A DNA stretch of 64,000 bases from positions 524 to 64,523 of the IMG/VR virus record IMGVR_UViG_3300047334_000093; one strand, written 5' to 3'. This DNA is from a virus (lineage: Duplodnaviria > Caudoviricetes). Under the pieces are notes generated by a model, which was given only the letters and a program-made list of their open reading frames with translations, ran no database searches and was not told the DNA's origin. Both the position numbers and the translations under genes were made by a program. Positions within the stretch are counted from its first letter, which is position 1. Every line of letters begins with the position of its first letter. Positions 27,259 to 58,556 of the stretch are shown here, in pieces.

Positions 27259-27264
27259 GCGCCA

Positions 27265-27759: not shown

Positions 27760-27760
27760 A

Positions 27761-27835
27761 ATGAAATTGCGGCTTTGTTTTATTGCAGTTTCGTTGCTGC
27801 TTGGCGCCGCTGCGCAAACGGTGCTGGAAACGTGA
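27761..27835 (+). pseudogene. signal-peptide-only mini-ORF (remnant)
   Basis: MKLRLCFIAVSLLLGAAAQTVLET*, GTGA-coupled to the next gene. Confidence 0.5.
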
Positions 27836-29244
27836 AATTCCGTTGGGTCATTTTGGCATCTTCGGCACTGCTCGCCGCGGCGGGGCCGATTAACCCTTAC
27901 CAGGTGGTTATTGGCACAACCGCCGGCACCCTGGCGGCGGGAAACGACAGTCGGTTTAGTGCACCAACCATCACGGGAGGCAGCATAAATGGCACTCCTA
28001 TTGGTTCTTCTGCGCCGTCAACTGGTTCATTTTCGACCTTAAATGCAACGGGCGGTGGCACTTTAGCGAATGAAACCTTAACTTCGCCAACCATTAATTC
28101 TTCGACCATTAATTCTTCGACCATTACAAACATGACCGAGAACAACACCGGTCAGATGTATCAAAACAACGGCGCACACATTTTTCGCTATGGCGATCGA
28201 GCCTTTATCGGCGCGGCATCGGACAACCCGGCAAATAGCAATCGCTCGCAAACGCCAACCGATTGGCTGACGGCGTTGATGCAAAGCACACCAATTGGAG
28301 GATATCCGGTTTACGGAGCGCAAACTGCATCGCTATCCCGCTACGGTGCCATCGGCTTGCTGGGCGCATCTCAGGCGTCTGACAGCCAGGCACAGTCTGG
28401 TCTGCTCGGCTACACGCCAGCCGCCATCGGTGTAGCGGCGTGGGGCATCAACGACGACACCACGACCGGCTCCACCGCCGTATCGGCGTGGGGGTTTTAC
28501 GGAGAAGGTTGGGCCAAAGGCTCGTCTTATCGGCCGGCATTCGCCGCAGAGTTTGAAGCCGACCGGTTCGGCACATTACCGACCGGCACAACCAATCCCT
28601 ACGCGACTAACGTCGGTGGCGGAGCTTATGGGCTTCAAATTGGGTCGGGTGGCGGACAGAGTTCGGGGACTGTGGATGCACAGGGCGCCATCGTGGTGGT
28701 CAGCAACCCGAACGCCTATCAGACGGGCCTTACGTTTGGGTCGACTGCAATAACGGGCACGAACGGCAACGACAACGGCTACGGCGAAGCAATTGGGCTG
28801 GCGAAAAACCAGGCCATCGCATGGCACACGCCAGAAACGACAGGCGGCGTGACGGGCGGCACAACAGGAGCATTGATCCGCTCCACCGTTACGCTCGGCG
28901 CCGACGCTTCCAGGATGGAATTTCAAAATGCTGGCGTGGTGTTCAGCAACGCGTCCGGGTTACAGATTTTCAGCATTTCGAATTCTTCGGGACCGACCAA
29001 TACGCTGCAAATTCAATCAGGCGCCAGCACACAGGCGGCGGGGATTTATGTGATTGAAGGTTCTGGCGGCAGCGCGAACCTGGGGCTTTATCCGGCCAGT
29101 GGTGGCGAATTAATCTTAAGCTCTTCTGTAACGCCTACCAGCACAACCGCTGCTTTAATACCTGCTTACGGATTTATGCACATAAATGTCAATGGCACTG
29201 AAATGAGAATCCCTCTATTTTCACCCACCCAAGCAGGGGGGTAA
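27832..29244 (+). CDS. tail-fibre-like protein with predicted signal peptide
   Basis: MKFRWVILASSALLAAA, then fibre motifs GTTAGTLAAGNDSRF and ITGGSINGTPIG...GSFSTL; C-terminal INVNGTEMRIPLF. Confidence 0.75.
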   Translation: MKFRWVILASSALLAAAGPINPYQVVIGTTAGTLAAGNDSRFSAPTITGGSINGTPIGSSAPSTGSFSTLNATGGGTLANETLTSPTINSSTINSSTITNMTENNTGQMYQNNGAHIFRYGDRAFIGAASDNPANSNRSQTPTDWLTALMQSTPIGGYPVYGAQTASLSRYGAIGLLGASQASDSQAQSGLLGYTPAAIGVAAWGINDDTTTGSTAVSAWGFYGEGWAKGSSYRPAFAAEFEADRFGTLPTGTTNPYATNVGGGAYGLQIGSGGGQSSGTVDAQGAIVVVSNPNAYQTGLTFGSTAITGTNGNDNGYGEAIGLAKNQAIAWHTPETTGGVTGGTTGALIRSTVTLGADASRMEFQNAGVVFSNASGLQIFSISNSSGPTNTLQIQSGASTQAAGIYVIEGSGGSANLGLYPASGGELILSSSVTPTSTTAALIPAYGFMHINVNGTEMRIPLFSPTQAGG

Positions 29245-29249
29245 TTTTT

Positions 29250-31358
29250 ATGATAAAAATATTGTTTTTGTTAATTTTAACAGTTACTCCCGCGTTAGCT
29301 CAAACAAACCCTAATTTTGGTTCTACGACTCAAACGTCTCAGAGCAATCTTAACACGGCTTTTTCAATAAAATCTGATCTTTCGACCACAACCGGAAGCG
29401 TTACAAATTTAGCAGCTCTACAAGCTCTTCCGGCCGGACAATTTCCTAGCGTATTTCGGCAAGATGCCGCGACCACATATGCGTGGAGTAGTACTCAATG
29501 CTCAATCACGGGCTCGCCCAATGTGACAGGCGGCATCCGTGGCGACAATGGTTTTCAGGTAGCCCCAGCAACAGGCACAGGTTGCTGGATTGCACAAGTC
29601 AATAACGCGCCAATTTCCATCACTTTGTGGGGCGCCGATCGCACGGGGGGCGTGGATGTTATCCCGCAACTCACAGCGGCTTGCTCTATTCTTCCTGGAC
29701 GCACTTTTTACTTTCCGTCTGGCGTGTATTTTGTCAATTCTTCTTACAACCAAACCAACGTTTGCAACGTCATTGGTGACAAAGGCGCAGAAACCAACCC
29801 ATTGTCGCTGACAAACCAAGGGACGTGGTTCAACATAACCAACCCGGCCATTACGCCTTTCATGTTCGGCACAGGCGCGGCTGGGTCGCGGTGGGCAAAC
29901 TTCAGCGTGTCGCAAGCGCAGCCTGCACCGTCAACCTTTACCGGCAGCATTTCTGGGACAACCCTCACGGTGCCTGGTATCGTTACGGGGCCGGCGCTTG
30001 CCGTTGGGATGTATCTCGGCGGGACTGGCGGCACTGCCATCCCCGCTGGGACTTACATTTCCGCCGTCAACAGCAGCACGTCCTACACGCTGACCTACGC
30101 GGCGGCTACGACGTTGACGATCGGAACTGAGTCGATGTCGGCATGGAAGCCAACATTATATAACAGTTCTATATTCCAAATTTCTAATGTATATGGAGGC
30201 CCATCATTTGATAATATAATGTTTTATGGAGTTTATAGAGGATTTTCTATATATAACTCAGGGCGTTCTAACATAAGAAACGTAAGCGGCCAGTTTTTTA
30301 ATACAGGAATTTATTACGATAATGACCAAGATACCAGCTTTGTTGATAATTTCAAAGTTTGGCCTTTTTGGAGTGTTGACCCATCGGTTGTTTCCTATTC
30401 GCAATACAACGGAGATGCGATTGTTTCCGGCAGACACGATACTCCAATGTGGGGAAAAATACACGTTCTTGGGATGAAAAGTGCTTTGCACTTGGTTTCA
30501 ACGCCATCCGGCGTCACCAGCGGATTGACGATTGACCAAATAGATGGAGACGACAACCTTTATACTTTGATGGTTGATAACAACAACACGACTGCCATGA
30601 TTGGCAAAATGTATAGCGCTGGCGGCGGTATTCCGAACAGCGAGGTTATTTACATTGGCGGCGCGTTTAACACGATTGACCTCGGCGAAACTAACATGGG
30701 TAATGTTGGGTGTGCAGCCGTGGATGTTTACGGTGCCACGGGTGGCAATATTATTCGCGCGTCTACAATGACGCTGACAAACATAAACCAAAATCCAAGT
30801 GGCTGCACGCAATCAGCCATTCGGATTATCAACGCAACAACGCCGAATTCATTCACAATGCCGATCCAACCTTCTCTTTTGAGCTACGCTGGATCAATTT
30901 ACGCGATTAACAACCAGATTAGCCCATCAACCACAAACGCCGTAATTGATGTGCCGATTACTGCGCCTTGGACCGCGACAATCCAAGGCAGCGGCGGCAC
31001 GGGAACTTCTACATATACTACCAGATATGGTGACTATACGGTCAAAGGTAACCAAGTTACGGTAAACTTTACGATCAACATTTCTGGCGCGTTTTCTGGG
31101 TATTCCGGAACAATTTCAATTGGTGGGCTTCCGTATTCGGCAGTTGGAACCAGCGCGGGTTATGGATGTCAAATTTATTATTACGCTTCTATTACCCCTG
31201 CATCAGGCAACACAGGCGTAACTGGAACAATTAGTGCAGGAGGGAGCCAGATCGTTCTCACGTCGGTCGGGGGATCAACGGCGCCTTCTCTCATAAACGC
31301 TTCGCAAATCGGGTCTAATCCGTCAATTAATGGAACTTGCACTTATATGAGGAATTAA
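29250..31358 (+). CDS. tailspike-like beta-helix protein with predicted signal peptide
   Basis: MIKILFLLILTVTPALA-Q; WGADRTG..D...YFPSGVY pectin-lyase-like cap; C-terminal WTATIQG...Y..R.G.YTV.G.QV...IGGLPY fibre domain. Confidence 0.8.
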   Translation: MIKILFLLILTVTPALAQTNPNFGSTTQTSQSNLNTAFSIKSDLSTTTGSVTNLAALQALPAGQFPSVFRQDAATTYAWSSTQCSITGSPNVTGGIRGDNGFQVAPATGTGCWIAQVNNAPISITLWGADRTGGVDVIPQLTAACSILPGRTFYFPSGVYFVNSSYNQTNVCNVIGDKGAETNPLSLTNQGTWFNITNPAITPFMFGTGAAGSRWANFSVSQAQPAPSTFTGSISGTTLTVPGIVTGPALAVGMYLGGTGGTAIPAGTYISAVNSSTSYTLTYAAATTLTIGTESMSAWKPTLYNSSIFQISNVYGGPSFDNIMFYGVYRGFSIYNSGRSNIRNVSGQFFNTGIYYDNDQDTSFVDNFKVWPFWSVDPSVVSYSQYNGDAIVSGRHDTPMWGKIHVLGMKSALHLVSTPSGVTSGLTIDQIDGDDNLYTLMVDNNNTTAMIGKMYSAGGGIPNSEVIYIGGAFNTIDLGETNMGNVGCAAVDVYGATGGNIIRASTMTLTNINQNPSGCTQSAIRIINATTPNSFTMPIQPSLLSYAGSIYAINNQISPSTTNAVIDVPITAPWTATIQGSGGTGTSTYTTRYGDYTVKGNQVTVNFTINISGAFSGYSGTISIGGLPYSAVGTSAGYGCQIYYYASITPASGNTGVTGTISAGGSQIVLTSVGGSTAPSLINASQIGSNPSINGTCTYMRN

Positions 31359-31619
31359 ATGATAAAATTTTCTTTTATTAAATTCCGATTATTTTCCATA
31401 TTATCAGCCCGCCCATGGACCGTGGACATTGCCAGCGGAACCGCTCTTTGTGCTCTCAGTTGGTTTTTCTGGTTCGACCCGTTATCCGTCATAAACCGAA
31501 GCGCCTATACGTTTTTGGACCGCCTTCAATTCCCATGGCTTGAAGGCGCGATGTTCGTCATTGGCCTCGGCTGGGCAATTTCCGAAACTTACAACTGGGT
31601 TACAGTTAGTCAAAGCTAA
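31359..31619 (+). pseudogene. truncated paralogue of membrane protein 45059-45442
   Basis: Shares RPWTVDI.SG...FF..DPL..I.R.A..FL..L but stops after about two TM segments. Confidence 0.55.
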
Positions 31620-31630
31620 GGTTTAGTAAA

Positions 31631-31894
31631 ATGAAAAAATTAATCTTTGTTTTTACAATAATTTCAAGCTCTGCTTTTGCACAATCATCTCAAACAGAAA
31701 TAACACTAAAATTGTCTCAAGAAGAATTGGGAATTATAGGGCAATCATTAGATGCAATGCCTTATGGAAAAGTTGCGCCGTTGTTAGAAAAACTTCGTTT
31801 GCAAATTTATCCACAACTTAATGCATCCAAACTCACAGATTTAACCACAAAAAAATCTGATGTAAATCCGGAAAAACCTAAGGAAGCGCCATGA
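31631..31894 (+). CDS. small fibre-associated (chaperone-like) protein with predicted signal peptide
   Basis: MKKLIFVFTIISSSAFA-Q, then ITLKLSQEELGIIGQSLDAMPYGKVAPLLEKLRLQ. Confidence 0.7.
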   Translation: MKKLIFVFTIISSSAFAQSSQTEITLKLSQEELGIIGQSLDAMPYGKVAPLLEKLRLQIYPQLNASKLTDLTTKKSDVNPEKPKEAP

Positions 31895-32613
31895 ACTACG
31901 GCGATTACACGGCATGGCTGACTGCTTTTGCGGCGGAAAACAACGTGGATGCCGTGTTTATGAACACGGCTATTCCGCGCATTATCGATTATGCCGAGCA
32001 ACGCATCTATCGCGAGCTTGATCTCCTTGAAACCCGCGTTCGCGATATTAGCAGCAGCACGACGGCCAACAGCCGGAACTTCACGGTTCCGGCGCAGATT
32101 GTGGTAGTCGAAGGCGTCAACATCGCCACACCGGCCGGCTCGACGCCTGACTCTGGCACACGCAATCAGTTAACCCCAACAACGCGAGATTTTTTGGATG
32201 CCGTGTATCCAAATTCATCGATTGTCGGTGTGCCAAAGTTTTTTGCCATGGTTGAGCAAAATCTTATGCTCTTTGGCCCGGCGGCCGATCAGGCTTATAC
32301 TGTTGAAGTCATCGGAACATTCCGGCCCGCACCGTTGTCGTCTACCAATTCGACAACGTTTCTTAGCCTTTACCTGCCTGACCTTTTCATGGCAGCATCC
32401 ATGATTTTTACAAGCGGTTACCAAAAAAACTTTTCAGCTATTTCCGATACGCCGGCCGCAAGTCAGACTTGGGAAGCGCAATACCAACACCTTCTCAAAT
32501 CTGCTTACACCGAGGAAGCTCGAAAGAAATGGACCGGTTTAGCATGGCGTTCTAGGTACCCTGATCCGACGCAGACTATTACGCCCGAGCCGGCGGGGAA
32601 TATGCCGCGGTAA
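31891..32613 (+). CDS. adaptor protein (second tail tubular A-like)
   Basis: MNY..Y...IPRIIDYAEQRIYRELD...G.PKFFA...GP..DQAY.VE...PDL. Confidence 0.75.
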   Translation: MNYGDYTAWLTAFAAENNVDAVFMNTAIPRIIDYAEQRIYRELDLLETRVRDISSSTTANSRNFTVPAQIVVVEGVNIATPAGSTPDSGTRNQLTPTTRDFLDAVYPNSSIVGVPKFFAMVEQNLMLFGPAADQAYTVEVIGTFRPAPLSSTNSTTFLSLYLPDLFMAASMIFTSGYQKNFSAISDTPAASQTWEAQYQHLLKSAYTEEARKKWTGLAWRSRYPDPTQTITPEPAGNMPR

Positions 32614-32619
32614 CGTTTC

Positions 32620-34554
32620 GTGCCAATTTCAAAGATTACGCTGGCGCCAGGCATTAATGTTGAAAAAACGCAGCAGCTTAATGAAGGAACGTGGTCATTT
32701 TCTGATCGGATACGCTGGCGCGACGGGTTGCCGGAGCCGATCGGCGGCTGGGTGCAGTATTATCCAACGGCGTTACCGCAAACAATCCGATCCTTGCACG
32801 CATGGCAAGCCATAAATGGTATAGAATATCTCGCTGCCGCCGGGACAAGTTTTGTCGGTGTTTTGACTAGCGGAACGCTTATGTCAATTGGTCCAAGCGG
32901 TCAAACTGACAGCATACCGACAACTCAAATAAGTTGTGTTTCTGGTGGAAATTTAGTTGAGTTTTCTGATTCTGGGTTGGTTTCTTCGGTTGGTGATTAT
33001 ATCAATTTTGTCACGCCAGTGACTTTTGTAGGGGCCGGGTATCCGCTCGTTTCTGGAGTTTATGAGATAACGTCAATTGCACCATCAATTCCTGTTCAAA
33101 ATATATTTTCAACTACAAATACTTTTTTGAGTTCTACCAGTGCAACACTTCCCACATTTTCTACCACATCTGGCAGCGCAACCGTAACGATAGCATTTGC
33201 AACCAATGCCTATTCGGTTGGAGAACAATTTACTGTTGCGCCTGCCCTTTCGGTTGGTGGCCTTACTCTTTCGGGCGCTTATACGATCCAATCAATTAAC
33301 GCGCTTGTCGGCTTTACCATAAACGCCGCATTCGCCGCGACTTCTACCGCAACAGCAACGCTTAATGGTGGGAACGCACAAATCCAATATCTTAGCCGCG
33401 GCGCAAACCTCGTGACTGGTGCGTTCTGGACCATGGACAACTGGGGAGAGATTTTGTTGCTTTGCCCGAATGGCGGCACGATCTACCAATGGTCTCCTGA
33501 AAACGGTGGTCTCCCTGCACAACCGATCGGTACAGCTCCGGCGCTTAATGGCGGCATTTTTGTCGCCATGCCGGAACAGATTTGCGTCGCGTGGGGCTCA
33601 ACCGGCACAGGCGGAACGACAGACCCGCTGTTGGTTAGATGGTCGGACGTAAACGACTATACCGATTGGACACCGACCATAACAAATCAAGCTGGAAGTC
33701 AGCGCATCCCAACCGGAAGTAAAGTTAAGGGCGCTATTCAGGCAGCAAACCAAGCTTTTATTTTTACTGATATTGACGTTTATGCAATGTCTTACGTGGG
33801 GTCTACTTTTGTTTTTGGATTTAATAAACTGGCTGATGGTTGTGGTCTGGTGGGGCCGTTTGCCGTTGGGGCGTTGTTTGGTCAAGTTTTTTGGATGGGA
33901 ATCGGACAATTTTTTGTTTACAATTCTGCTGGCGTTCAGCCGATGGCTTGTCCGATTTGGGATGTCGTCTATCAGCAGCTTGACACGAGCAATCTTCAAA
34001 AAATTCACTGCGGAATAAACTCGAAATTCAACGAGGTTTGGTGGTTTTATCCGTCTACCAGTGGAAGCGGTGAGGTCGACAGCTATATAAAAATTAACAT
34101 GCTTGAGCAAGCATGGGATTACGGCACTGTAGCTCGCACAGCTTGGGTCGACCAGTCGGTTCTTGGTTCCCCGATCGGCGCAGCGCCTGGTGGCATTCTT
34201 TATCAACATGAGACCGGCACGACGGCCAACGGTAGTTTGATAGGTGAATATGTCGAAAGCGGCGCTATTCAGATTTCCGAGGGCGATGATATCGTTTTTG
34301 TAGACTGGGTTTTGCCAGATTTTAAATGGGGTCTGTACGGAACATCCCCGTCTACAACCGTAACGATTACGCCAAAAGGCTGGATGTATGCCAGCGATAC
34401 CCCAACCGTATTCGGACCTTATAACGTTCAGCAATCAACGCAATTCTTTAACCCCCGCATTCGCGCTCGCACCATTTCTGTCCGACTCAACGGCAACGGA
34501 TATTGGCGCATGGGTTCAATTCGATATCGCGCCGCTCCAGATGGCAAGATGTAA
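32620..34554 (+). CDS. tail nozzle/stabilisation protein (P22 gp10/T7 gp12-like)
   Basis: PGIN...RWRDGLPE.IGGW...WTMDNWGE...VRWSD..DYTDW.PT.TNQAG...FNEVWWFYPS...RTAW.D...PDG. Confidence 0.85.
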   Translation: MPISKITLAPGINVEKTQQLNEGTWSFSDRIRWRDGLPEPIGGWVQYYPTALPQTIRSLHAWQAINGIEYLAAAGTSFVGVLTSGTLMSIGPSGQTDSIPTTQISCVSGGNLVEFSDSGLVSSVGDYINFVTPVTFVGAGYPLVSGVYEITSIAPSIPVQNIFSTTNTFLSSTSATLPTFSTTSGSATVTIAFATNAYSVGEQFTVAPALSVGGLTLSGAYTIQSINALVGFTINAAFAATSTATATLNGGNAQIQYLSRGANLVTGAFWTMDNWGEILLLCPNGGTIYQWSPENGGLPAQPIGTAPALNGGIFVAMPEQICVAWGSTGTGGTTDPLLVRWSDVNDYTDWTPTITNQAGSQRIPTGSKVKGAIQAANQAFIFTDIDVYAMSYVGSTFVFGFNKLADGCGLVGPFAVGALFGQVFWMGIGQFFVYNSAGVQPMACPIWDVVYQQLDTSNLQKIHCGINSKFNEVWWFYPSTSGSGEVDSYIKINMLEQAWDYGTVARTAWVDQSVLGSPIGAAPGGILYQHETGTTANGSLIGEYVESGAIQISEGDDIVFVDWVLPDFKWGLYGTSPSTTVTITPKGWMYASDTPTVFGPYNVQQSTQFFNPRIRARTISVRLNGNGYWRMGSIRYRAAPDGKM

Positions 34555-34937
34555 TGAGCGGAACCGGGGGAGGGTTTTCAGATATAGTAACAATTCTGAA
34601 AAACCTAAATCAGAACATATCGGTTTTAAATTCGAATTTGACAAAAATAGCCTCAGTTATTCCTGGGATTGCAAATGTTTCTGATGTTCAAATTCAATCC
34701 TTTCTTGGAACGACCAATTCAAGCGGGCAATTTTCTGTAACGTTTCCTGTTGTATTTTCAGCAGCACCAACGGTCGTGACTTCAAACGGCGATTCTGCAT
34801 CTGGCGAAGGTGAGACGGTGACGCCTTTAAAAAGTAGCATCACAACCACGGGTTTTACGGCACAATGGGCCACTGCCGTTGGCACCCCAACGGCTAGCGG
34901 CCAAGTTCGGCGCGTCAATTATGTGGCGGCGGCATGA
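34554..34937 (+). CDS. short tail needle/fibre with gp53/H-lectin-like C-terminus
   Basis: N-terminal coiled coil; VTFPVVFSAAPTVV...ITTTGFTA...NYVA. Confidence 0.6.
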   Translation: MSGTGGGFSDIVTILKNLNQNISVLNSNLTKIASVIPGIANVSDVQIQSFLGTTNSSGQFSVTFPVVFSAAPTVVTSNGDSASGEGETVTPLKSSITTTGFTAQWATAVGTPTASGQVRRVNYVAAA

Positions 34938-35536
34938 CGCTCTTTGCCACGATGCCCGGTATTGCCCACCGCGGCGGCCCGCCGCGTATAGCGCATCCTA
35001 TGCCGCACGCTGGCTTTGGTTCTCTTGGGCGCCAACACTTTGCCTCTGGGGGCACAACGTCGCCTGGCGTTCCGTTCAACCAAGGCTTATTGCATTCTGT
35101 TGTTCCGGGGCGTACCGACAAGTTGCCTGTTGACCTGCCGAACGGCGCCTATGTGCTTCCGGCTGACGTGGTTTCAGGCATCGGAGAAGGCAACACGACG
35201 GCTGGCGCGTCGATCCTTGACGGGATGTTCAGCGGAGCTCCTCACGGCGAAACCCGAGGGCCACACAACGCCATGCAGGCGCAGGTCAACCGAGGGTATG
35301 GGCCGCCCATGGCGCCTCCATCATATCAAATGGCTGCCGGTGGTGTTGTGGCTCATGAACCTCGCGCCAAGATCATTGCAGCCGGTGGCGAGTATGTTGT
35401 GCACCCCGATGCAGTGGCACGCATCGGCCACGGCGACATAAAAAAAGGCCACGACATCCTTGACGCTTTCGTCAAGCATGTCCGCAACCGGACGGTGAAG
35501 ACAATGCAAAAATTGCCGGGACCGAAGAAAAAGTGA
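34934..35536 (+). CDS. conserved virion protein (GRTD...YV.PADVV domain, twice)
   Basis: FASGG...PGRTDKLPVDLPNGAYVLPADVVSGIGEGNT.AG; MAAGG...AGGEYVVHPD.V. Confidence 0.75.
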   Translation: MTLFATMPGIAHRGGPPRIAHPMPHAGFGSLGRQHFASGGTTSPGVPFNQGLLHSVVPGRTDKLPVDLPNGAYVLPADVVSGIGEGNTTAGASILDGMFSGAPHGETRGPHNAMQAQVNRGYGPPMAPPSYQMAAGGVVAHEPRAKIIAAGGEYVVHPDAVARIGHGDIKKGHDILDAFVKHVRNRTVKTMQKLPGPKKK

Positions 35537-36048
35537 CAGACACGCAATCCATCGTCCGCATCGGCACAATGGACGATTGGGCATCCATGCTGGAGTTGCT
35601 TGACCTCATGTATGAGGAAAACAGCATCGTCAGTAAAAGCCAGGAAAAGATTGAGCAAGTTTTGCGTCGCGGGCTTAATCGTGATGGCGCCATTGTGGGC
35701 GTCATAGGTGCGCACGATCACATAGAGGCCAGTATTGGTTTGTTTGCGCATCAGTATTGGTATTCCGATGATTATCACATTGAAGACCATTGGTGTTTTG
35801 TTCATCCCAAGTTTCGGCAACCCGGAAAGGGTGGTGGAAATCGTCCAAGTTATGCGCGCCAATTGTGCAAGTTTGCGAAGAAATGCGCTCTTGATCTTGA
35901 CATTCCGTTGCTGATTGGCGTGCTCTCCAGCCACCGAACCGAAGCAAAGGTTAACCTGTATCGGCGCAATTTTGCCGAGGCTGGAGCTGGGTTTGTTTTT
36001 AACGTGAAGCACGGCTCGTTCGTGGAAGCTCCACATAATCATGGGTAA
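35533..36048 (+). CDS. GNAT-fold acetyltransferase-like virion morphogenesis protein
   Basis: WYSDD...FVHPKFR...ARQLCKFAK; position before ejection proteins. Confidence 0.7.
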   Translation: MTDTQSIVRIGTMDDWASMLELLDLMYEENSIVSKSQEKIEQVLRRGLNRDGAIVGVIGAHDHIEASIGLFAHQYWYSDDYHIEDHWCFVHPKFRQPGKGGGNRPSYARQLCKFAKKCALDLDIPLLIGVLSSHRTEAKVNLYRRNFAEAGAGFVFNVKHGSFVEAPHNHG

Positions 36049-44646: not shown

Positions 44647-44679
44647 CCGCGTTTAAGCCACGTTGGCTTCGGCGTTTCA

Positions 44680-45442: not shown

Positions 45443-45454
45443 GAGAGTCATCTA

Positions 45455-46813: not shown

Positions 46814-46911
46814 TGACTACAACCGTTCAAATTTCTGTTCCTAATACGCTGAACGTTAATGTTGAAGTTCGCAGACGCCCCACCCCAAACCGAAAATAAG
46901 GCGGCACAATA

Positions 46912-47277: not shown

Positions 47278-47281
47278 CGCC

Positions 47282-47437: not shown

Positions 47438-47438
47438 A

Positions 47439-47768: not shown

Positions 47769-47981
47769 ATGCCAGTTTTCCACGAGTTTCGCGACCTTAT
47801 ACCGGTCGCGACGCCTCGTGGGCCTGGCGTAGCACTGCTGCTACGCTGTTACGGAATTGAGTCGCACGACATGTGGACGGTCGTGATGGACGCGGATGGT
47901 TCGGTCTGGACGTTCCAAAACCCAGACATTCGCGTGCAGTTTAATCCGACGCTCGGTCGCGTACCGAAAGAAAAAAACTGA
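47769..47981 (+). CDS. conserved small phage protein
   Basis: IPV.TP.G.G.A....YG.E...W.V....G..WTF.N.DIR...N.TLGR. Confidence 0.7.
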   Translation: MPVFHEFRDLIPVATPRGPGVALLLRCYGIESHDMWTVVMDADGSVWTFQNPDIRVQFNPTLGRVPKEKN

Positions 47982-48731: not shown

Positions 48732-48742
48732 AGGAACATACG

Positions 48743-49153
48743 ATGCGTAAAATTTCCATTTTTCTTGGCCTATCGTTGCTCGCCGGTTGCGCCCTTACGG
48801 CCACGCAATCTGCTGCGATCACGAGTGCCGTCACGGCCGCTACGACGCTTGAGACCGATATTGCGACGGACATTCAGTCCGCAAGCGCAACGGGCGCAAT
48901 CCCGGCCACCGCTCTTGTTGCCATCAATGCACAACTGACAACGTTGCAGACCGACATCGCAGCTTTATCGGCGGGCAACACAACGGCCGCAACGGTCGAG
49001 GCAGATGTACAATCTGCCATTATGGATGCCGCACCTTATGTACCGGAAATCGCCGCGCTAATCACCACGGCAGCAAAAAAAGGTGTCGTGGCGCCGACAA
49101 GTGTCATTGCAACGCATTTTGACGCGGCCGAACAAGCACTACACGCGATCTGA
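48743..49153 (+). CDS. lipoprotein (spanin-like candidate)
   Basis: MRKISIFLGLSL-LAGC lipobox; helical Ala/Thr-rich body; AAGGA RBS. Confidence 0.75.
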   Translation: MRKISIFLGLSLLAGCALTATQSAAITSAVTAATTLETDIATDIQSASATGAIPATALVAINAQLTTLQTDIAALSAGNTTAATVEADVQSAIMDAAPYVPEIAALITTAAKKGVVAPTSVIATHFDAAEQALHAI

Positions 49154-49167
49154 AACAGAGGCCGCAA

Positions 49168-51687: not shown

Positions 51688-51836
51688 TGCGAAATTATGC
51701 CATTGTTTTTGCTGCGGTGTTTGCTGCCTTAAGTGGTTCCGCAGAGGCGCAGAGCAGTGGAGCAAACACTGGCGCGGGTATCCTTGATGGTGCATCTATT
51801 ATCCTTATTAACCCTGCAGCGATAGGGGGGCCGTGA
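51687..51836 (+). CDS. 49-aa secreted peptide
   Basis: MRNYAIVFAAVFAALSGSAEA-Q; GGAGG RBS; TAATG coupling. Confidence 0.6.
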   Translation: MRNYAIVFAAVFAALSGSAEAQSSGANTGAGILDGASIILINPAAIGGP

Positions 51837-51837
51837 C

Positions 51838-52866
51838 ATGCCGTTCCAAACAACAGACCAAGGTGCGGCGGTTCGGATTCTTGCTTACGATACAGCGGCT
51901 GGGTCGTTCCTTCCCCTCTTTGCATCAAACGGCACGCTTGACGTTACGGGCAGCGGCGGTGGGGGTTCTGGTGGGACCGTTACGGTAGCCGGAGGCACGC
52001 TGACTGGCATAACCAATACCGTTGCGGTTGCGGGCACCGTCACTATAGCAAATCCCGGCAGCGTTGTCTCTGCAGTATCGGTCACTAATTTTCCTAGCAC
52101 ACAAACCGTTGCCGGAACGGTGACAATTGCTAATCCTGGAACTACATCTAGCACTGTTACTATTGCTAATGCCGTGGCGCTTGCCGCCGGAAGCGCGCAG
52201 ATTGGCACAGTCGCCCTTGCTGGCGGCACAATTGCGGCAACCGGAACGGTAGCAGTAAACAATTTTCCTAGTACACAAGCTATTAGCGGCACTCTAACGG
52301 GTATAACTAACGGCGTTACCCTCGCTGCCGGCCCCAACAACGTCGGAACCGTAGCGATTGCGGGCGGCGCTTTGACCGTTGGCGGAACGACCAAGGTTGT
52401 TTCAGGTTCGCTCTACAATCTTGGTGGGGGGACAACCTACAGCAACGGCGTTGTGATTGGCTCTTCCGCATCTCCGGGTGGAAACGGCCTTGTATCGGTA
52501 ACTGGTGTGTTCCGCGCTGGCGCCACGAGCGGCTTGTTGCAAGACCTGATGTTGTTTACGTCTGACGCGCAAACGACCGCGTCGTTTAACAGCCTGATTT
52601 TCGCCAACGGACTGCCGACAAGCAGCACCGTGACAGATCACACTACACTAAACGTCTCTTCTGCTGATTTAGCTAAAGTTCCAAAAGTCGTTCCATTGAC
52701 CTCGGCGTTTCCGCTTGGCACTGCCACTTCGTTTCAAACTCTTCAGCAAACGCTGCCAGTAATCGCGCCGACCGGAACGTTTGATATTGCCTTCGTTCAG
52801 ACCGGGACTTTTGCGTCCACCAGCACGCAAGACCTGGCTTGGGCGCTGTCGTTCTTGTCGGATTAA
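51838..52866 (+). CDS. fibre-like repeat protein (no signal peptide)
   Basis: Repeats NFPSTQ, VAGTVTIANPG, GTLTGITN, L.AG...IGTV. Confidence 0.7.
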   Translation: MPFQTTDQGAAVRILAYDTAAGSFLPLFASNGTLDVTGSGGGGSGGTVTVAGGTLTGITNTVAVAGTVTIANPGSVVSAVSVTNFPSTQTVAGTVTIANPGTTSSTVTIANAVALAAGSAQIGTVALAGGTIAATGTVAVNNFPSTQAISGTLTGITNGVTLAAGPNNVGTVAIAGGALTVGGTTKVVSGSLYNLGGGTTYSNGVVIGSSASPGGNGLVSVTGVFRAGATSGLLQDLMLFTSDAQTTASFNSLIFANGLPTSSTVTDHTTLNVSSADLAKVPKVVPLTSAFPLGTATSFQTLQQTLPVIAPTGTFDIAFVQTGTFASTSTQDLAWALSFLSD

Positions 52867-52872
52867 CGATAT

Positions 52873-53571
52873 ATGCGACCTATTTTGATCAATAACCCAA
52901 ATTCAAATTTGCTAATTGGATCAAAGGGCAAATGGAAATTTGACGAAGGTGTAGGGTCAATTGTTCGCGATAGCAGCGGCAATGGTTTGGACCTATATTT
53001 ATCAGGGTCTGCAATATGGAACAAAGGTATTTACGGGAACTCTGTCTTTTTCGTAGAAGCAATGGCTGCGTCTCAACAAAAATTTATAATTCCTAGTTCA
53101 GGTTTTAGTATGTCATGCTGGTGCAAACCGACTACATCGAGTCAAACGGGTATTATTTTCGCGGCGTGGGTAACTCCGGCAAATTTTGCATACATACAAT
53201 TAATAAATTTTTCGGGAAGCGTTCAACTGCGAGTTGGTAAAATTAGCGGAGATTGGTTAACTCTAAGCACAAACGGTTCAGTTTTGCCGAATAATATTTG
53301 GACGCATTTTGCATTTACGTGGAACGGGCAATTAAATAGCAATTCCATGGTTTTATACGTTAATGGTAAAGTCCCCACTCAAACTTTTGCACCAGATGCC
53401 AGCACGCCAAATCCCGCCGGAACATTGGTGTCTTTGTCTTTTGCAAATGAAATTTCGGCAGGAAACCCCAGTTTTGTCGGGGGTTTCGACCAGGGCCAAG
53501 TTTGGAATCGTGCTTTATCATCTGCCGAAATTTATCAACTCTACGCACTCCAGCCCGGAAACGGCCAATGA
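52873..53571 (+). CDS. LamG/concanavalin-A-like lectin domain protein
   Basis: WKFDEGVGSIVRDSSGNG...WTHFAFTW...LYVNG...WNRALSSAEIYQLY. Confidence 0.85.
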   Translation: MRPILINNPNSNLLIGSKGKWKFDEGVGSIVRDSSGNGLDLYLSGSAIWNKGIYGNSVFFVEAMAASQQKFIIPSSGFSMSCWCKPTTSSQTGIIFAAWVTPANFAYIQLINFSGSVQLRVGKISGDWLTLSTNGSVLPNNIWTHFAFTWNGQLNSNSMVLYVNGKVPTQTFAPDASTPNPAGTLVSLSFANEISAGNPSFVGGFDQGQVWNRALSSAEIYQLYALQPGNGQ

Positions 53572-54098
53572 GCACATACATCTACGCCCCAAACGCCACA
53601 GCCCAAGGCGCCCCTTGGACCGCTCCAGTTGGCGTAACGCTAACGGAGGCATGGCCCGCGACGTATGGTGATTGGATCGACATCACAGCACTCAGCACGG
53701 CGCCCACACCCGGCAGCACATATGCCAACGGCACTTGGACTGCGCCCGTAGCGCCAAGCACAACTCCGACGAATGCACAGCTTGCCGCTGCACTTCAAAA
53801 TGCCGGGCTTACGCTTACATGCACGAGTGATTCAGCGCTGGACGGCGTGTATGCACTCGACACTGCCACGCAGCAAGCAATCAACGCAACCAGCACATAC
53901 ATCCTCACGAACCCTGGAAAGTTCCCCGGTGGCGCTACGTCCCTCGTGTGGCTTGATGTGGCGGGAACTCCCCGCACGTTCACGTCTACCGAGACGTTTC
54001 AAGAATATGCGACTGCGACTGCGAATGTGGTGGCAGAGCTTGATCTCTACGCCGCGGGGCAGGGAAGCGCGCCGACGATGAGTGTGACGATAGCTTAA
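53568..54098 (+). CDS. tail fibre assembly-like protein (DUF4376-like)
   Basis: W.DITAL..AP.PG.TY.NG.W.AP; GVYALD...FPGG...WLDVAG. Confidence 0.6.
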   Translation: MSTYIYAPNATAQGAPWTAPVGVTLTEAWPATYGDWIDITALSTAPTPGSTYANGTWTAPVAPSTTPTNAQLAAALQNAGLTLTCTSDSALDGVYALDTATQQAINATSTYILTNPGKFPGGATSLVWLDVAGTPRTFTSTETFQEYATATANVVAELDLYAAGQGSAPTMSVTIA

Positions 54099-54143
54099 CA
54101 TTTTCCCCGGCCTAAACGCCGGGTGTTTCAGCGAGAATGTACT
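54094..54143 (-). mobile_element. degenerate IS200/IS605-end mini element
   Basis: CCCGGC-CTAAAC-GCCGGG hairpin then GTTTCAGCGAGAA, followed by ATCAA (probably mutated ATGAA). Confidence 0.45.
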
Positions 54144-54308
54144 ATCAAAAAACAATTTGCTTTGGCTGGGTTGTGCGCTGCGTTGGTGGCGCTTCCCGCG
54201 CTGGATGAAGCTGCCAGCCTTGACTCAAACAGCCTGCAGTGGCGGCGTAGCGTAGCATCAAATTGGATTTCACCTAATTTTTTCCCTACTATCACCTACA
54301 ATCCGTAA
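54144..54308 (+). pseudogene. decayed signal-peptide gene of the AASL..SLYG family
   Basis: (I)KKQFALAGLCAALVALPALDEAASLDSNSL; start appears mutated ATG>ATC. Confidence 0.5.
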
Positions 54309-54325
54309 AGCAACGGAGGAAAAAT

Positions 54326-54661
54326 TTGCGTATTTTTGCTCGAATTAGTTTGCTGTTGGTGCTAATTCCGCTAGCCGCACACGCGGCAAGTTTGGAAAAC
54401 GGCTCGCTTTACGGCGGAGAAACAAATGGTTCTGGCGGCGGGTCGTTGCCGGTGTTGCTTGGTGTGGGCGCGCCGGGGACAAGGGTTGGACAAAATGGGC
54501 AAGAATACATCGACACCGCATCCAAAACCATATGGGTTTACGACGTAACCGCTTGGGCGCCCATCTATACCGCATCTCCCGTCCCGCCGGGCGTAGCGGC
54601 CACGCTGGCCTTTAACTCCGCAACAAATAGCGGGCTTCTTTCCATTTTGATGGGGTTCTGA
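54326..54661 (+). CDS. secreted fibre-module protein
   Basis: MRIFARISLLLVLIPLAAHA-ASLENGSLYG; G.GAP...GQNGQEYIDT...WVY..W; GGAGG RBS. Confidence 0.7.
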   Translation: MRIFARISLLLVLIPLAAHAASLENGSLYGGETNGSGGGSLPVLLGVGAPGTRVGQNGQEYIDTASKTIWVYDVTAWAPIYTASPVPPGVAATLAFNSATNSGLLSILMGF

Positions 54662-54664
54662 TTC

Positions 54665-55681
54665 ATGCGCAGGTGGCTCTTGGCTTCGGCTGCAATTTTG
54701 ATTTCGCTGCCGGCATATGCCGAAACCACTATGACGGTGCTTAACAGTTCTGGCAGCGTGGTCAATATCCCGGCTGAGACCAGCACGGTTGGCGGGGTGA
54801 GCAGTGTGACGCTGCATAGCGTTCCCGAGGTCAGCGGCTCCGCAGTTACGAGCGGCAATCCGCTGCCCACCGCGGACAGCGCCGCGGAAGGATCGCTTGC
54901 TACGATCGCGACGCAGACCAGCGGGGTTGCCACGGCGGCCAAGCAGGCGACAATCAACGCGGACGGCGGATCGCAAGTTCATGTGCAAAATTTCCCCAGC
55001 ACACAAGCCGTAACGGTCAGCGGTACCCCGACTGTTGCTGTCACTACGCTTCCCGCGCTGCCCAACGGGACCAATGCCATTGGCTCCGTAACCGTGACCA
55101 ATACACCTAACGTCGCAGTCACGTCGCTGCCAGCGCTGCCCAACGGGACCAACACGATCGGCAACGTCAACATCAACGGCACACCATCTGTATCTATCAG
55201 CGGCACTGTTCCGGTATCTGGCTCCGTGGCGCTGATGGGCACCCCAAGCGTATCTGTGACATCAACGGTTCTACCGACTGGCGCGGCTACGAACGCCAAC
55301 CAGGGCACGGTAAACACGGTCGGAACCAACACGACCAGCGGAAACCTTCAGGTTATCCAAGGCGCCACCGGCGGCGTCCCCTTGCCGGTCAGCGGTGCCA
55401 TAACGGCGACGCCGAGCAGCGTCTCATACGGGTTAATTTCTTGCACAACCACGGCCAGCACGAGCACGCAATGTATGGCTGGGGGGTCGTTCCCCCACGG
55501 GGGCGATATCCTTAATCCTGCCACCGCAACAGCAAATCTGTGCTTTAATTTTGGCTCTGCGGCTAGTGCTTCGAGCCCATGCTTAGCACCCGGCACCGCT
55601 TACCATCTTCCATTCCCCACTGTTCAAGCTCTTAATGTCTACGCTACAGCCGCACAAACCGTCGAAGGATTTGCATACTAA
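54665..55681 (+). CDS. secreted fibre-like repeat protein
   Basis: MRRWLLASAAILISLPAYA-E; VTSGNPLPT, ATAAKQ, NFPSTQ, LPALPNGTN x2, LPTGAAT. Confidence 0.75.
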   Translation: MRRWLLASAAILISLPAYAETTMTVLNSSGSVVNIPAETSTVGGVSSVTLHSVPEVSGSAVTSGNPLPTADSAAEGSLATIATQTSGVATAAKQATINADGGSQVHVQNFPSTQAVTVSGTPTVAVTTLPALPNGTNAIGSVTVTNTPNVAVTSLPALPNGTNTIGNVNINGTPSVSISGTVPVSGSVALMGTPSVSVTSTVLPTGAATNANQGTVNTVGTNTTSGNLQVIQGATGGVPLPVSGAITATPSSVSYGLISCTTTASTSTQCMAGGSFPHGGDILNPATATANLCFNFGSAASASSPCLAPGTAYHLPFPTVQALNVYATAAQTVEGFAY

Positions 55682-55682
55682 T

Positions 55683-58556
55683 ATGAAAAAGATTGTTTCA
55701 GCCACGATTGCGGCAATACTCGGTGTCACGCCGGCTTATGCACAGTTCTCAGGTGGCGGCGGATCAGGAGGCGGCGGTGGCGCGACCATTCCGTCCGTGC
55801 CGACTACAACGCCGCTTACCGGCACGGGCTCGGCGGGCAGCGCGCAGGCCGCTACCGGAAGCATGGTGCTGCCTAACGGCACAAGTGCAACCACGCAACC
55901 GGTCGGAACGAATACCGGCGCGGTGGCGACTACTGCGTTCGTCACCTCGGCTGTAGGGTCCGCAACGCCGGGCTCAAACGTCAGCGCTTCAACTGCCACA
56001 ACGACAGCCGGGAATACTGCGATCACGCTGGCAAACCGGTTCGGTCAGGTTTTCAACCCAAAAGATTACGGTTCTGTTGGCGACAACGGCGCAACCACAC
56101 ACACGGTCAACAGCAAATTGGGCGTCACGTCCTTGTCGGGACTTGCGGCAGTAAGCGGGTATTCGTGGGTTACAAATCCAGTTTACGGGCTGACGTTTTC
56201 TCTCTCTAGTAATACGGCGCAGGGCGCGGCGGGGACCACCTTAGCTTATACCCCTATTGCTGCAAGCTCCAGTTATGCCCCGACCGGGGCAATAGCTGCG
56301 AGCTACAATTACGCTGCGAGTAGCAACGTTGTGTTGCCTGGCATGACAGTGAGCAATGGCAGCGGCACGTCCTGCATTGCAGCCAACACAACTGTTTCGA
56401 GCGTCAATTCGGGAATTGACTTTTCTGTCTATACTCCATTTGCCAGCGCGGCGGGGCAACCGAAAATTAAATTACCATTTGTTGGAGGATTGGCAATTGG
56501 GATGCCAATTTATACCACGGCTGGTGGTTCTACACCGATAGGGACTATCACCGCTATCAATTCTATGACATATTCAACCGCTGCCGCTTCAGCGCTGAAT
56601 GCCTCATATACTTACGATCAAAACGCTACCATGATGGTCGGTAGCGACATTGCGCCGGTTATAACGTTTTTTCAAACTACTGGAGGCAGTAATACAGCTA
56701 CTCTAAATGCTGGGAGCACACCTACTGTGGGGCAAATTATTGCTCCAACTATAGCGTTTTCTACAAGCGCACTATACGGACTTTTGTATCCTCCAGGTAC
56801 TACTATCACCAATATAAGCGGAACAACTATTACGACAAGCAACCCTGCAAATTTAACTTCTAATAGTGCTTATCAGCAAGTCTTTGCATTAAGCCCGCCA
56901 TCCATCACCATTAGTGCAAATCTTAGCTCAGCGATTGCAGTAGGCACACAAATTTTCTTTGGGGGTGTTTCTCAGGTAGTGCTCAATCAGGCGACTGCAT
57001 CAGCTTGCCCCGCAAATGCGGCTATAACTTATTCATATTCAACGGGATCGTCTGGAGCTGGCACTGTTGGCGGTCTTGATATGGATTGGTTAGGTATGCA
57101 AAGCGCCGTCATTGGCGCAGCCGCTAGTAATGGTCGCGTAGAAATACCTTCTGGTAATTATACAATGACACGTGGGGTAACAATACCAACCAACAGCACT
57201 AACATATCTATCAATGGGGCAGGTCGTCTATCTACAATATTAAATTATTCAAACGATGAGCCGCGCGGTGCATGTGGTCTAGGTTCCTATAATCAAATAA
57301 ATCAATACGGTATTCAAACCGAATACAGTAATTTTAGTTTGTTTGGTCCTGGTGGATTTCTTGTGATTGGCGGTGAAACTGCTCAAATGAATGGTTTGTG
57401 CATGAATACAGGTGACAACGCTACTGATATGGATATGCGCAGCTTTCATTCAGGTTTTAATATTACAGGCAACCATCAAAAACTAAACAAAATACAAACT
57501 TCATATAACTGGTATGGTATATATATTGATGCTTACAGCAACAACAATGGAGCGCAATATTTTGATTTAGCAGAATTACAAGCAGATAATTTCTCAAACT
57601 TTGGTTTCCAATGGCAGTCAGGTCTTGATAGTGGGACAATGCAAAATGTTCATTTTGGAAGAACTCCTAGAGGCTTTTATAAAGAAGGCGCTCCCTATGG
57701 TCAAATTGCTGCTGGATGGTTAACTAATTACTCATTCAAATTTATTTCTTCAGAAGCTATTGGGAATGAAGCTATTTTTGGAGAAAATGGTAGTCCCCGT
57801 ACTGGAGTGGGTGATCTTATAGATAATAATACGTTTATTTCCAGTAGTCTTTCGCTTAGTCCTAGCGCTGGTTTTATTATGCCGACTTTAACATTAAACG
57901 CCCTTATTACTTCAGGAGAAATAAAAGAAAACGTGTTTTTAAATAGCGATATGGATGGTGGAGGACTTCAGGGAACATTAACAGACGTCACAGAATTAGC
58001 TACCTGTGCCGTAATATGTGGTGGTGCATTCCCGTCAGTTTGGAATAATTCAACTATTGGTGAGAATATGTTCATAGGTGATCTTTCAGTAAATAATATG
58101 GTTACCAATCCAGGGCAACCTTACAATTCTATTTACAAATCATCAGCGCTTTCTGCGAATGGTATGCAAAAAAATACTTTTGAATCATCAAGCCAATTTG
58201 GTGAATTTGCACCTATAGGTGTACCAGTTTCTCCTGGTATGATTATGCAATTCTATCCAGATTATGCGGGATCAGCTACACAACCATACACTGCTGGTGG
58301 TGTTGTTATGGGCGTAGCTAATAGCGGGACTGGCTCGGGCTCAACATGGTCTCATGCAGGAACGGTCGCTGTTGTTCGCAAAGGTCACGCCTCTGTGAAC
58401 TATACGAACGAAAGTAATAGCCCGATCCATGCTGTTGTGAGTTCGACTACACCCACTTCTGCTACCACATCGGCAGCATCAGATGCTACTTCTGTCGTGG
58501 TCGGTGTTTGGGTGGGCAACAACAGCGGAGATATTTACGTCAATCCGTCGCCGTAA
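55683..58556 (+). CDS. second large tailspike-like protein with predicted signal peptide (paralogue of 49168)
   Basis: MKKIVSATIAAILGVTPAYA-Q; ATTQPVGTNTGAVATTAFV; VFNPKDYGSVGD; MDWLG.Q; IPSGNY. Confidence 0.8.
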   Translation: MKKIVSATIAAILGVTPAYAQFSGGGGSGGGGGATIPSVPTTTPLTGTGSAGSAQAATGSMVLPNGTSATTQPVGTNTGAVATTAFVTSAVGSATPGSNVSASTATTTAGNTAITLANRFGQVFNPKDYGSVGDNGATTHTVNSKLGVTSLSGLAAVSGYSWVTNPVYGLTFSLSSNTAQGAAGTTLAYTPIAASSSYAPTGAIAASYNYAASSNVVLPGMTVSNGSGTSCIAANTTVSSVNSGIDFSVYTPFASAAGQPKIKLPFVGGLAIGMPIYTTAGGSTPIGTITAINSMTYSTAAASALNASYTYDQNATMMVGSDIAPVITFFQTTGGSNTATLNAGSTPTVGQIIAPTIAFSTSALYGLLYPPGTTITNISGTTITTSNPANLTSNSAYQQVFALSPPSITISANLSSAIAVGTQIFFGGVSQVVLNQATASACPANAAITYSYSTGSSGAGTVGGLDMDWLGMQSAVIGAAASNGRVEIPSGNYTMTRGVTIPTNSTNISINGAGRLSTILNYSNDEPRGACGLGSYNQINQYGIQTEYSNFSLFGPGGFLVIGGETAQMNGLCMNTGDNATDMDMRSFHSGFNITGNHQKLNKIQTSYNWYGIYIDAYSNNNGAQYFDLAELQADNFSNFGFQWQSGLDSGTMQNVHFGRTPRGFYKEGAPYGQIAAGWLTNYSFKFISSEAIGNEAIFGENGSPRTGVGDLIDNNTFISSSLSLSPSAGFIMPTLTLNALITSGEIKENVFLNSDMDGGGLQGTLTDVTELATCAVICGGAFPSVWNNSTIGENMFIGDLSVNNMVTNPGQPYNSIYKSSALSANGMQKNTFESSSQFGEFAPIGVPVSPGMIMQFYPDYAGSATQPYTAGGVVMGVANSGTGSGSTWSHAGTVAVVRKGHASVNYTNESNSPIHAVVSSTTPTSATTSAASDATSVVVGVWVGNNSGDIYVNPSP

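Follow-up and report, generated by a model that had tools for sequence, protein, structure and literature searches.

In the genome of a tailed phage (Duplodnaviria; Caudoviricetes) represented by the IMG/VR record IMGVR_UViG_3300047334_000093, a set of tailspike-like and tail-fibre-like proteins opens with classical secretion signals, and these proteins are most likely sent to the cell envelope instead of being built into the virus inside the cell. The stretch analysed, hereafter the window, comprises 64,000 nucleotides (bases 524-64523 of the record), and its genes are named by their first position in the window. The cytoplasm is taken to be where tailed phages fold their tail fibres and tailspikes and attach them. 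Nine late-operon genes of this phage encode a basic N-terminus, a hydrophobic core and an AxA-type cleavage site, and in addition there are one lipoprotein gene and two leftover signals.

The translated N-termini read MIKILFLLILTVTPALA before Q in 29250, MKKLIFVFTIISSSAFA before Q in 31631, MKIKVASAGLFAFMIAAVSAHA before A in 49168, MRNYAIVFAAVFAALSGSAEA before Q in 51687, MRIFARISLLLVLIPLAAHA before A in 54326 (from a TTG start), MRRWLLASAAILISLPAYA before E in 54665 and MKKIVSATIAAILGVTPAYA before Q in 55683, with a weaker signal, MKFRWVILASSALLAAA before G, in 27832 (from a GTG start). These are the seven intact N-termini and the weaker eighth that an earlier reading of the window (the original prediction) had listed, and all of them are present in the translations as it described them; the list was nevertheless incomplete, with 15538 and the lipoprotein 48743 added here. 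To call signals we used a crude heuristic of our own (charge, an eight-residue hydrophobic window and the -3/-1 rule; not SignalP), and the N-terminal classes given below rest on this heuristic or on reading by eye, as marked. The top-scoring real genes were 15538, 27832, 29250, 31631, 49168, 51687, 54326, 54665 and 55683, together with 48743. A positive n-region, an h-region of 8-15 residues and small residues at -3 and -1, characteristic of Sec signals cleaved by signal peptidase I, are found in 15538, 29250, 31631, 49168, 51687, 54326, 54665 and 55683, and in weaker form in 27832. The signals are short and of Sec type (17-22 residues); an RR pair occurs in 54665 only, and there is no consensus of the twin-arginine translocation (Tat) pathway.

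Strong Shine-Dalgarno (SD) sequences precede 29250, 51687, 54326 and 48743, and the starts of 27832, 54665 and 55683 lie 0-3 bases from the preceding stop, as in stop-start coupling. True starts downstream of the hydrophobic segments, which the original prediction had named as a possible refutation, were not found in usable form: within 70 codons there is no in-frame downstream start with an SD sequence except a weak GTG at codon 48 of 54665, and it is the signal-including starts that show SD sequences or coupling. By their heuristic features and their start sites, and with no alternative starts to set against them, the N-termini look like real Sec signals. None of the 19-residue windows of the mature parts resembles a membrane span (maximum Kyte-Doolittle mean 1.49). 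The density of signals is unusual, as the heuristic flags five of the 20 non-overlapping open reading frames (ORFs) of at least 300 aa in the window versus none of 359 in 80 loci of gp10-like relatives (Fisher p = 2.4e-7); in the 45 loci to which the 27832 family led, it flags 10 of 261 such ORFs. When L002 and the 80 hub-relative loci were counted more loosely, 13 of 450 ORFs of at least 250 aa emerged, all 13 of them at most 290 aa long and none fibre-sized. Promoter and terminator scans of 44000-60000 found sites no more frequently than in shuffled sequence, and there is therefore no sign of separate "moron" transcription units.

Domain homologies bear out the proposal that the signal-bearing proteins are relatives of tail fibres and tailspikes, and every one of the motifs quoted for them (GTTAGTLAAGNDSR, VFNPKxFGAxGD, ATTAFV, IGGLPY) is present. 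The last 370 residues of 27832 share 43-55% identity with 36 proteins of a large collection and with 45 viral-contig loci, and most of these relatives open, by eye, with a short motif (MPAFNSYP..LTG.E.., MARLGSYP.. and similar) joined directly to the C-terminal domain. For 29250 we found only four distant homologues, which carry PF12708 and start with MPDLKISELPAATTLTDADL, a fibre anchor instead of a signal; the protein also matches a pectin-lyase-like protein of Burkholderia phage BcepMigl. 49168 and 55683 are paralogues (2e-28), and a profile of the 55683 family (alignment A3) matches, over short stretches only, tailspike 4ru5 (5e-7) and the mannuronan C5-epimerases AlgE6 (7e-5) and AlgE4 (2e-4). 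Sequence searches of the PDB with 55683 and 29250 and with profile A2 returned no matches, and PF12708 and related Pfam models found none among the window proteins at E 0.01.

To locate the virion anchor we built a profile from the first 48 residues of 19 anchor-type fibre homologues (motif M-x-x-x-x-Y-P...L-T-G-x-E...). Of the 326 window ORFs it matches one, 27265 (E 5.6e-9), and no signal-bearing protein scores. The usual fibre anchor thus resides here on a 164-aa stub, and two domains that elsewhere follow the anchor come after a signal peptide instead. Of the signal-less adaptors originally proposed, 27265 could serve as one because it has the sole virion-anchor motif in the phage; 51838 turned out to be simply the signal-less paralogue of 54665. 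A complex predicted for three copies of 27265 and three of residues 18-130 of 27832, folded without alignments, reached a score of 0.01 and a mark of 0.34 and counts neither for nor against an interaction. As an observation apart, many contigs of about 20-22 kb from isolate genomes (L087-L113) carry a near-uniform 412-aa anchor-type relative of 27832 some 2-3 kb from one end of small viral records, and these may be a conserved defective prophage or gene-transfer-agent-like element of Acetobacteraceae.

Conservation of the signals in homologues had been set beforehand as a test that could refute the prediction, and the signals are kept in homologues of 49168 and 55683 and in a clustered sub-lineage of the 27832 family. 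Five of the six 49168 homologues have a signal-like N-terminus by eye. 55683 aligns over its full length with P0009, P0010 and P0011 at 40, 41 and 40% identity, and all three are signal-bearing. An exhaustive protein search with 55683 gave 120 matches, 26 of which the heuristic flags; of the 18 best (E no higher than about 1e-29), it flags 10, and three more are signal-type by eye (P0025, P0030 and P0031), giving 13 of 18, and the other five comprise two C-terminal fragments, one protein that starts inside the domain and two without a signal. The more distant matches mostly have no signal, and some open with fibre anchors (e.g. P0057). In the 27832 family, four of 36 proteins are signal-type by eye (P0140, P0148, P0155 and P0174), as are six of 41 viral loci (L086, L120, L122, L124, L125 and L126), a count that left out L114, L117, L129 and L130 for their short or partial matches and of which L130 later proved signal-type too. 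ORFs with NFPSTQ repeats carry a signal in four of 41 viral loci (L139, L144, L153 and L163), so that the signal-bearing share in viral contigs is about a tenth in each of these two unrelated fibre families. Pfam searches with 10 signal-bearing proteins from other contigs gave nothing for nine of them.

In a tree built from the 27832 family's C-terminal domain (32 rows; P0139 and P0154 left out), the window protein (P0138) groups with L086 (100/99) and then with P0148 (97/94), and P0140 and P0155 are adjacent, while the 25 anchor or short types fall together in a clade of their own (82/90); two to three changes of the signal state are required on this tree. The start of P0148, LARAATYTSYP, resembles the MARLGSYP of relatives, and P0148 lies inside the signal clade.

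Cysteines provide further evidence. The mature parts of 29250, 49168, 54665 and 55683 have 8, 16, 4 and 6 of them, most of them paired closely along the sequence; the 2698 residues of the two ejection proteins include no cysteine, and four signal-bearing window proteins have no mature cysteines. Six signal-type fibre-like proteins from other viral contigs also have even counts without exception (6, 6, 4, 2, 4 and 6), and with the four window proteins, P0140, P0155 and P0174 the cysteine-containing signal-type fibre-like proteins examined are even in 13 of 13 cases. In alignment A2, P0140 and P0155 share cysteine pairs at columns 256/270 and 324/337 that occur in none of the 14 other rows. Because mature cysteine counts in the fibre-like signal-bearing proteins are even, the export is probably real, and we infer it with strong support from the sequences.

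The two remnants reported originally are present as well, one as the 27761 ORF and the other, given as 54144, inside ORF 54123-54308. The 27761 ORF is the leftover of an earlier signal-bearing gene; a frameshift fusing it to 27832 was set aside, as the fusion would have two tandem hydrophobic segments. The mature parts of 54326 and 49168 begin with ASLENGSLYG and ASLSPDSLYG (BLASTP 2e-4; common motif ASLxxxSLYG), and the 54123 remnant has a decayed form of this start, ASLDSNSLQW. A DNA comparison of the 5' end of 49168 with 54123-54700 found no significant similarity. The GC content is 0.33 in 31631 (GC at third codon positions, GC3, 0.19), 0.42 in 52873 and 0.35-0.43 in the 3' half of 55683, as against 0.53 for the window, and by its GC and GC3 values 31631 stands out as foreign to the phage. 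Repeated acquisition of cassettes is suggested by how unevenly the genes are composed and by the leftover signals.

As to what the exported proteins do, we lean towards one reading, to which we would give slightly less than an even chance: that they act as free polysaccharide-binding or polysaccharide-cutting factors on the envelope of the infected cell and, after lysis, in the surrounding matrix. We infer for them an enzymatic role and absence from virions. The N-terminal virion anchor of late-operon fibre and tailspike relatives would have been replaced by a cleavable Sec signal peptide; late in infection, the proteins would cross the inner membrane through Sec, be cleaved by signal peptidase I and acquire their fold and disulfide bonds in the periplasm. 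In that compartment and, post-lysis, in the medium they would work free of the virion, binding or cutting polysaccharide of the host surface or matrix. The likely effect would be that the receptor or exopolysaccharide layer of the infected cell is stripped or stopped, leaving progeny untrapped and free to spread through the pellicle.

This reading draws on the context of the nearest full-length relatives of 55683. In three metagenome contigs (L083-L085), such a relative directly follows an NLPATQ/NFPSTQ-repeat protein related to 54665 and 51838, and the pair is surrounded by genes for a Polysacc_synt flippase, Acyl_transf_3, MBOAT, a group-1 glycosyltransferase and an FkbH-like protein. Formate dehydrogenase and GGDEF genes are close by, and phage genes are absent. 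An exported tailspike-fold glycanase from an exopolysaccharide cluster is already known in WceF (see below), which provides a precedent. A bacterial polysaccharide-synthesis locus as their home favours free, envelope-acting enzymes, and thereby speaks against one of the two fates originally suggested, that the exported proteins join virions.

A number of observations weigh against this reading. The three contigs are closely related and count as one observation, and the module in the bacterial polysaccharide locus could itself be phage-derived because the NFPSTQ family is mainly viral. Pfam finds no family in the ten signal-bearing window proteins at E 0.01. The cysteine argument has its exceptions: 15538 has an odd number of mature cysteines (Table 1), and within the 55683 family parity is modest, with 18 even and 7 odd counts in signal-type members versus 43 and 38 in non-signal members (Fisher p = 0.07). 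The median cysteine content of that family is 1.01% in signal-type versus 1.39% in non-signal members, and a raised content as a mark of export was dropped, since it is not higher in the signal-type members. The signal-bearing genes lie inside the structural operon, translationally coupled and right after the anchor stub 27265, and 27832 and 55683 keep fibre-shaft motifs behind the signal for which a free enzyme has no obvious use; in P0140 an anchor-like motif is preserved after the signal. Elsewhere, the complete provirus G005 has the order baseplate J, 299-aa protein, 242-aa signal-less fibre protein, 95-aa protein and signal-bearing 613-aa protein with tail-fibre PHROG matches; in L086, the gene for a signal-bearing protein of 1371 aa, whose C-terminal end is the 27832 domain (60% identity), is placed between those for a tail protein (phrog_394) and the hub; and signal-bearing proteins without a Pfam family follow an adaptor-like gene in L153:6045-15666 (835, 1013 and 1363 aa) and in L163:6753-12397 (843 and 1014 aa). 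In L086:6242-10875, between the 1371-aa protein and the hub gene, lie six tandem adaptor-like paralogues of about 205 aa and one of 310 aa.

Much of this would be accommodated by assembly in two compartments, which we regard as rather unlikely: the signal-bearing proteins would be distal receptor-binding proteins that mature in the periplasm, acquiring disulfides and perhaps gaining stability in acid medium, and that join cytoplasm-built particles only when holin action or lysis mixes the compartments, docking on signal-less parts such as 27265. Besides the operon position with its coupling, the retained shaft motifs, the signal-then-anchor order of P0140, the stub-then-fibre order of G005 and the fibre-slot position of signal-bearing proteins in L086, L120, L153 and L163, it could make use of the ASLxxxSLYG start of 49168 and 54326 (decayed in 54123) as a docking peptide, and the leftover signals would reflect repeated cassette exchange at this end, as for fibre N-termini. 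Late attachment is physically plausible because P22 tailspikes join tail-less particles in vitro without helpers; a literature search for the P22 gp7 leader returned nothing. Yet no case of such assembly is known or was found in the literature search, the signal-bearing proteins have no anchor motif, signal-less fibre candidates exist (27265, 51838 and the lectin-domain protein 52873), the nearest 55683 relatives lie in a bacterial polysaccharide locus, and attachment after lysis would compete with dilution. Extended to a recurrent minority mode of some tailed phages, in which the anchor stub is mounted on the tail in the cytoplasm and large distal fibres and tailspikes leave through Sec, undergo oxidation and folding in the periplasm and join the particle only as lysis begins, with the window phage as its most complete example, the proposal seems to us rather unlikely.

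Two other explanations appear less probable than these. That the exported fibre relatives are non-enzymatic, and bind the phage's receptor on the infected cell or are shown on the cell surface so as to block superinfection and stop progeny from sticking to debris, in the manner of phage T5's lipoprotein Llp, we consider improbable; as exported relatives of receptor-binding proteins they would suit this task, 27832 has no recognisable enzyme family, and signal-bearing fibre-like adhesins displayed on bacterial surfaces exist according to passages on the mosaic adhesive trimer (MAT) family (PMC10769870), but beta-helix or pectate-lyase-like regions, as are typical of depolymerases, occur in three of the large proteins, the large proteins show no outer-membrane anchor or lipobox, and a periplasmic signal alone does not place a soluble protein on the surface. 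Most improbable of all, in our estimate, is that nothing is exported and that the hydrophobic N-termini stem from gene-calling extensions or serve as a membrane tether or tail plug on ordinary cytoplasm-assembled fibres. The crudeness of the signal heuristic leaves some room for this, as do the weak signal and missing cysteines of 27832 and a possible upstream ORF extension in at least one homologue (P0148); it is opposed by the SD sequences or coupling at signal-including starts with no usable starts downstream, by consistent AxA sites followed by Q, A or E, by signals kept across 40%-identical homologues, by the even cysteine counts throughout the 13 fibre-like signal-type proteins and by the cysteine pairs private to the signal-type members of A2.

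The features of the two clusters and of the related genes are collected in Table 1. The small hydrophobic protein 31359 lies between the signal-bearing 29250 and 31631, and its paralogue at 45059-45442 (+), a small hydrophobic membrane protein, belongs to the lysis region.

Table 1. Signal-bearing genes, leftover signals and neighbouring genes of the window (evidence and remarks in the last column).
Positions	Strand	Feature	Evidence or remark
15538-15930	+	Signal-bearing protein, 130 aa, MIRIVFAAMVLAPIVAHA before A; 5 mature cysteines; no Pfam family	Just before antiterminator-like gene and terminase
27265-27759	+	Signal-less protein, 164 aa; possible short fibre or adaptor	Sole N-terminal fibre-anchor motif in the phage
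27761-27835	+	24-codon ORF, signal peptide and 6 residues only, MKLRLCFIAVSLLLGAAAQTVLET and stop	Own AAGGTG SD; TGA overlaps GTG of 27832 (GTGA)
27832-29244	+	470 aa; weaker signal, fibre-shaft motifs, conserved 370-aa C-terminal domain; no cysteines	Domain common to Acetobacteraceae prophage fibres
29250-31358	+	702 aa; signal, pectate-lyase-like beta-helix region; 8 mature cysteines	phrog_32881 "pectin lyase activity" 1.1e-11
31359-31619	+	Hydrophobic protein, 86 aa	Paralogue of 45059-45442 (BLASTP 4e-13)
31631-31894	+	87 aa; signal peptide	Translation, heuristic, composition
48743-49153	+	Lipoprotein, 136 aa; lipobox LAGC, MRKISIFLGLSLLAGC	End of lysis region
49168-51687	+	839 aa; signal, beta-helix; 16 mature cysteines in close sequential pairs	Paralogue of 55683
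51687-51836	+	49 aa; signal and 28-aa mature peptide	Translation, heuristic, start site
51838-52866	+	Signal-less NFPSTQ-repeat protein, 342 aa	Paralogue of 54665 (BLASTP 5e-14)
52873-53571	+	Signal-less concanavalin-A-like lectin/glucanase domain protein, 232 aa	PF13385 1.4e-19; phrog_8510 "virion structural protein" 9.9e-10
53568-54098	+	Signal-less protein, 176 aa; no known family	Family search
54123-54308	+	61-codon ORF; decayed signal (..KKQFALAGLCAALVALPALDEAASL..) and N-terminal motif of 49168/54326	Sequence
54326-54661	+	111 aa; signal peptide	Mature start matches that of 49168
54665-55681	+	338 aa; signal, NFPSTQ repeats; 4 mature cysteines	phrog_9224; nearest Atlas clusters viral
55683-58556	+	957 aa; signal, glycine-rich linker, fibre motif (..ATTAFV..), beta-helix; 6 mature cysteines	Last late-strand gene

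The record of 64,523 bp has direct terminal repeats and is rated 100% complete; the phage is a complete podovirus of P22-hub type with terminal repeats and no integrase. Its + strand carries genes for an antiterminator-like protein and the large terminase, followed by a 753-aa ORF that by its position is the presumed portal, a weakly matching head protein at 24344, a P22-gp10-type hub protein at 32620-34554 (phrog_3287, 5.7e-67; top tblastn match "phage stabilization protein", 39.8%), two giant ejection-type proteins at 36041 and 40204 and an endolysin at 46145 (GH108 with a PG_binding_3 domain). Searches of the complete genome for tyrosine and serine recombinases (PF00589, PF00239) found none, which makes ordinary lysogenic conversion unlikely; conversion by a prophage was set aside, the complete genome having no integrase or resolvase. 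A tRNA search of the phage found none.

The host is probably a member of the Acetobacteraceae (acetic acid bacteria), the sole basis for this placement being that all five named homologues of 27832 come from that family (Ameyamaea, Tanticharoenia, Swaminathania, Acetobacter and Asaia). Megablast of 24000-36000 against deposited phages gave no match and hence no close DNA relative, tblastn of 27832 and of 55683 against phages gave none, and neither did genome-contig searches with the presumed portal and with alignment A1 or viral-contig searches with 29250, with alignment A1 and with 27265. P0019, a 305-aa entry of the protein collection, is 96% identical to the C-terminus of 55683, and a close relative of the phage therefore exists in another data set. 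In six distant phage relatives (L003, L005, L008, L014, L019 and L026), a conserved protein about 289 aa long, whose N-terminus resembles a signal or that of a lipoprotein (MKTLKQKQVLVLLLALWPSYSQC..), is encoded about 1 kb downstream of the hub gene. On the - strand of the window are a transposase gene at 5877-6968 (phrog_12300/506), a 443-aa ORF at 61300-62631 that looks TnpB-type by eye only, and, opposite in strand to the late genes, a 341-aa protein at 1037-2062 with DUF7666 (6.5e-35) and collagen-like repeats.

The finding matters in that a whole group of fibre and tailspike relatives in one phage is equipped with secretion signals and that other viral contigs show this change again. Should the proteins remain free, a lytic phage would attack the surface polysaccharide of its host from the periplasm before lysis, which would concern the spread through biofilms, the destruction of receptors and efforts to find stable, disulfide-bonded depolymerases. 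Should they become part of the virion, the route of assembly would be new, and two-compartment assembly would be categorically so. On either reading, predictors of receptor-binding proteins and phage depolymerases should keep candidates with signal peptides.

Exported proteins of a similar kind are known in bacteria. Passages of one paper describe WceF of Pantoea stewartii as an exported trimeric glycanase with tailspike fold, encoded in the stewartan exopolysaccharide cluster, with a 28-residue Tat signal and a proposed action on the polymer in the periplasm or biofilm (PMC7949094). As in WceF so described, an export signal stands at the N-terminus of a tailspike-kind protein, and relatives of 55683 (L083-L085, one lineage) lie in a polysaccharide-synthesis cluster, although the phage genes themselves do not; unlike WceF, a bacterial protein with a Tat signal, the window proteins are phage-encoded, lie several together in a late operon and have short Sec-type signals, a distinction drawn from the descriptions. 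The excerpted account of the MAT fibres of Bdellovibrio bacteriovorus gives them as exported, trimeric and tail-fibre-like, with a signal peptide and exchangeable tips, and points to supplementary tables that list more cases from other bacteria and may be relevant to how common such proteins are (PMC10769870). With them the window proteins share a tail-fibre-like nature, a signal peptide and action outside the cytoplasm; compared by description, MAT fibres have a beta-rich domain, conserved and about 130 aa long, directly after the signal, in contrast to the window proteins, which have no common post-signal domain, and the carrier here is a phage. The claim of an undescribed system was thus too strong for the kind of protein, to judge from these partial accounts. 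Full-text literature searches, judged by listings and abstracts, turned up no description of a phage fibre, tailspike or depolymerase with a signal peptide or periplasmic assembly, and a phage that carries such a set appears not to have been described.

Among phage proteins, virion-borne tailspikes and anchor fibres, for example tailspike gp27 (PDB 4ru5) and the "MPAFNSYP.."/"MPDLKISELPAAT.." fibres of Acetobacteraceae prophages and related contigs, have domains in common with the window proteins. In 27832 these are the C-terminal 370 aa (43-61% identity), in 29250 the PF12708-type region and in the 55683 family the N-cap motif. In those proteins the anchor comes first and there is no signal, whereas in the window a separate protein of 164 aa bears the anchor and the large proteins are signal-first. 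Free, non-virion polysaccharide depolymerases of phages are soluble, are released at lysis and act on the matrix around infected cells; to our knowledge they lack a signal peptide and only lysis brings them outside, so that the window proteins are like them in being phage-encoded and unlike them in having a signal peptide. Lambda Lom and Bor, T5 Llp, which masks the receptor of that phage, and the spanin lipoproteins are signal-bearing products of late genes, but they are small outer-membrane proteins or lipoproteins unrelated to fibres. The window proteins are likewise exported and encoded by late genes, and differ from all of these in being large and in being relatives of fibres and tailspikes.

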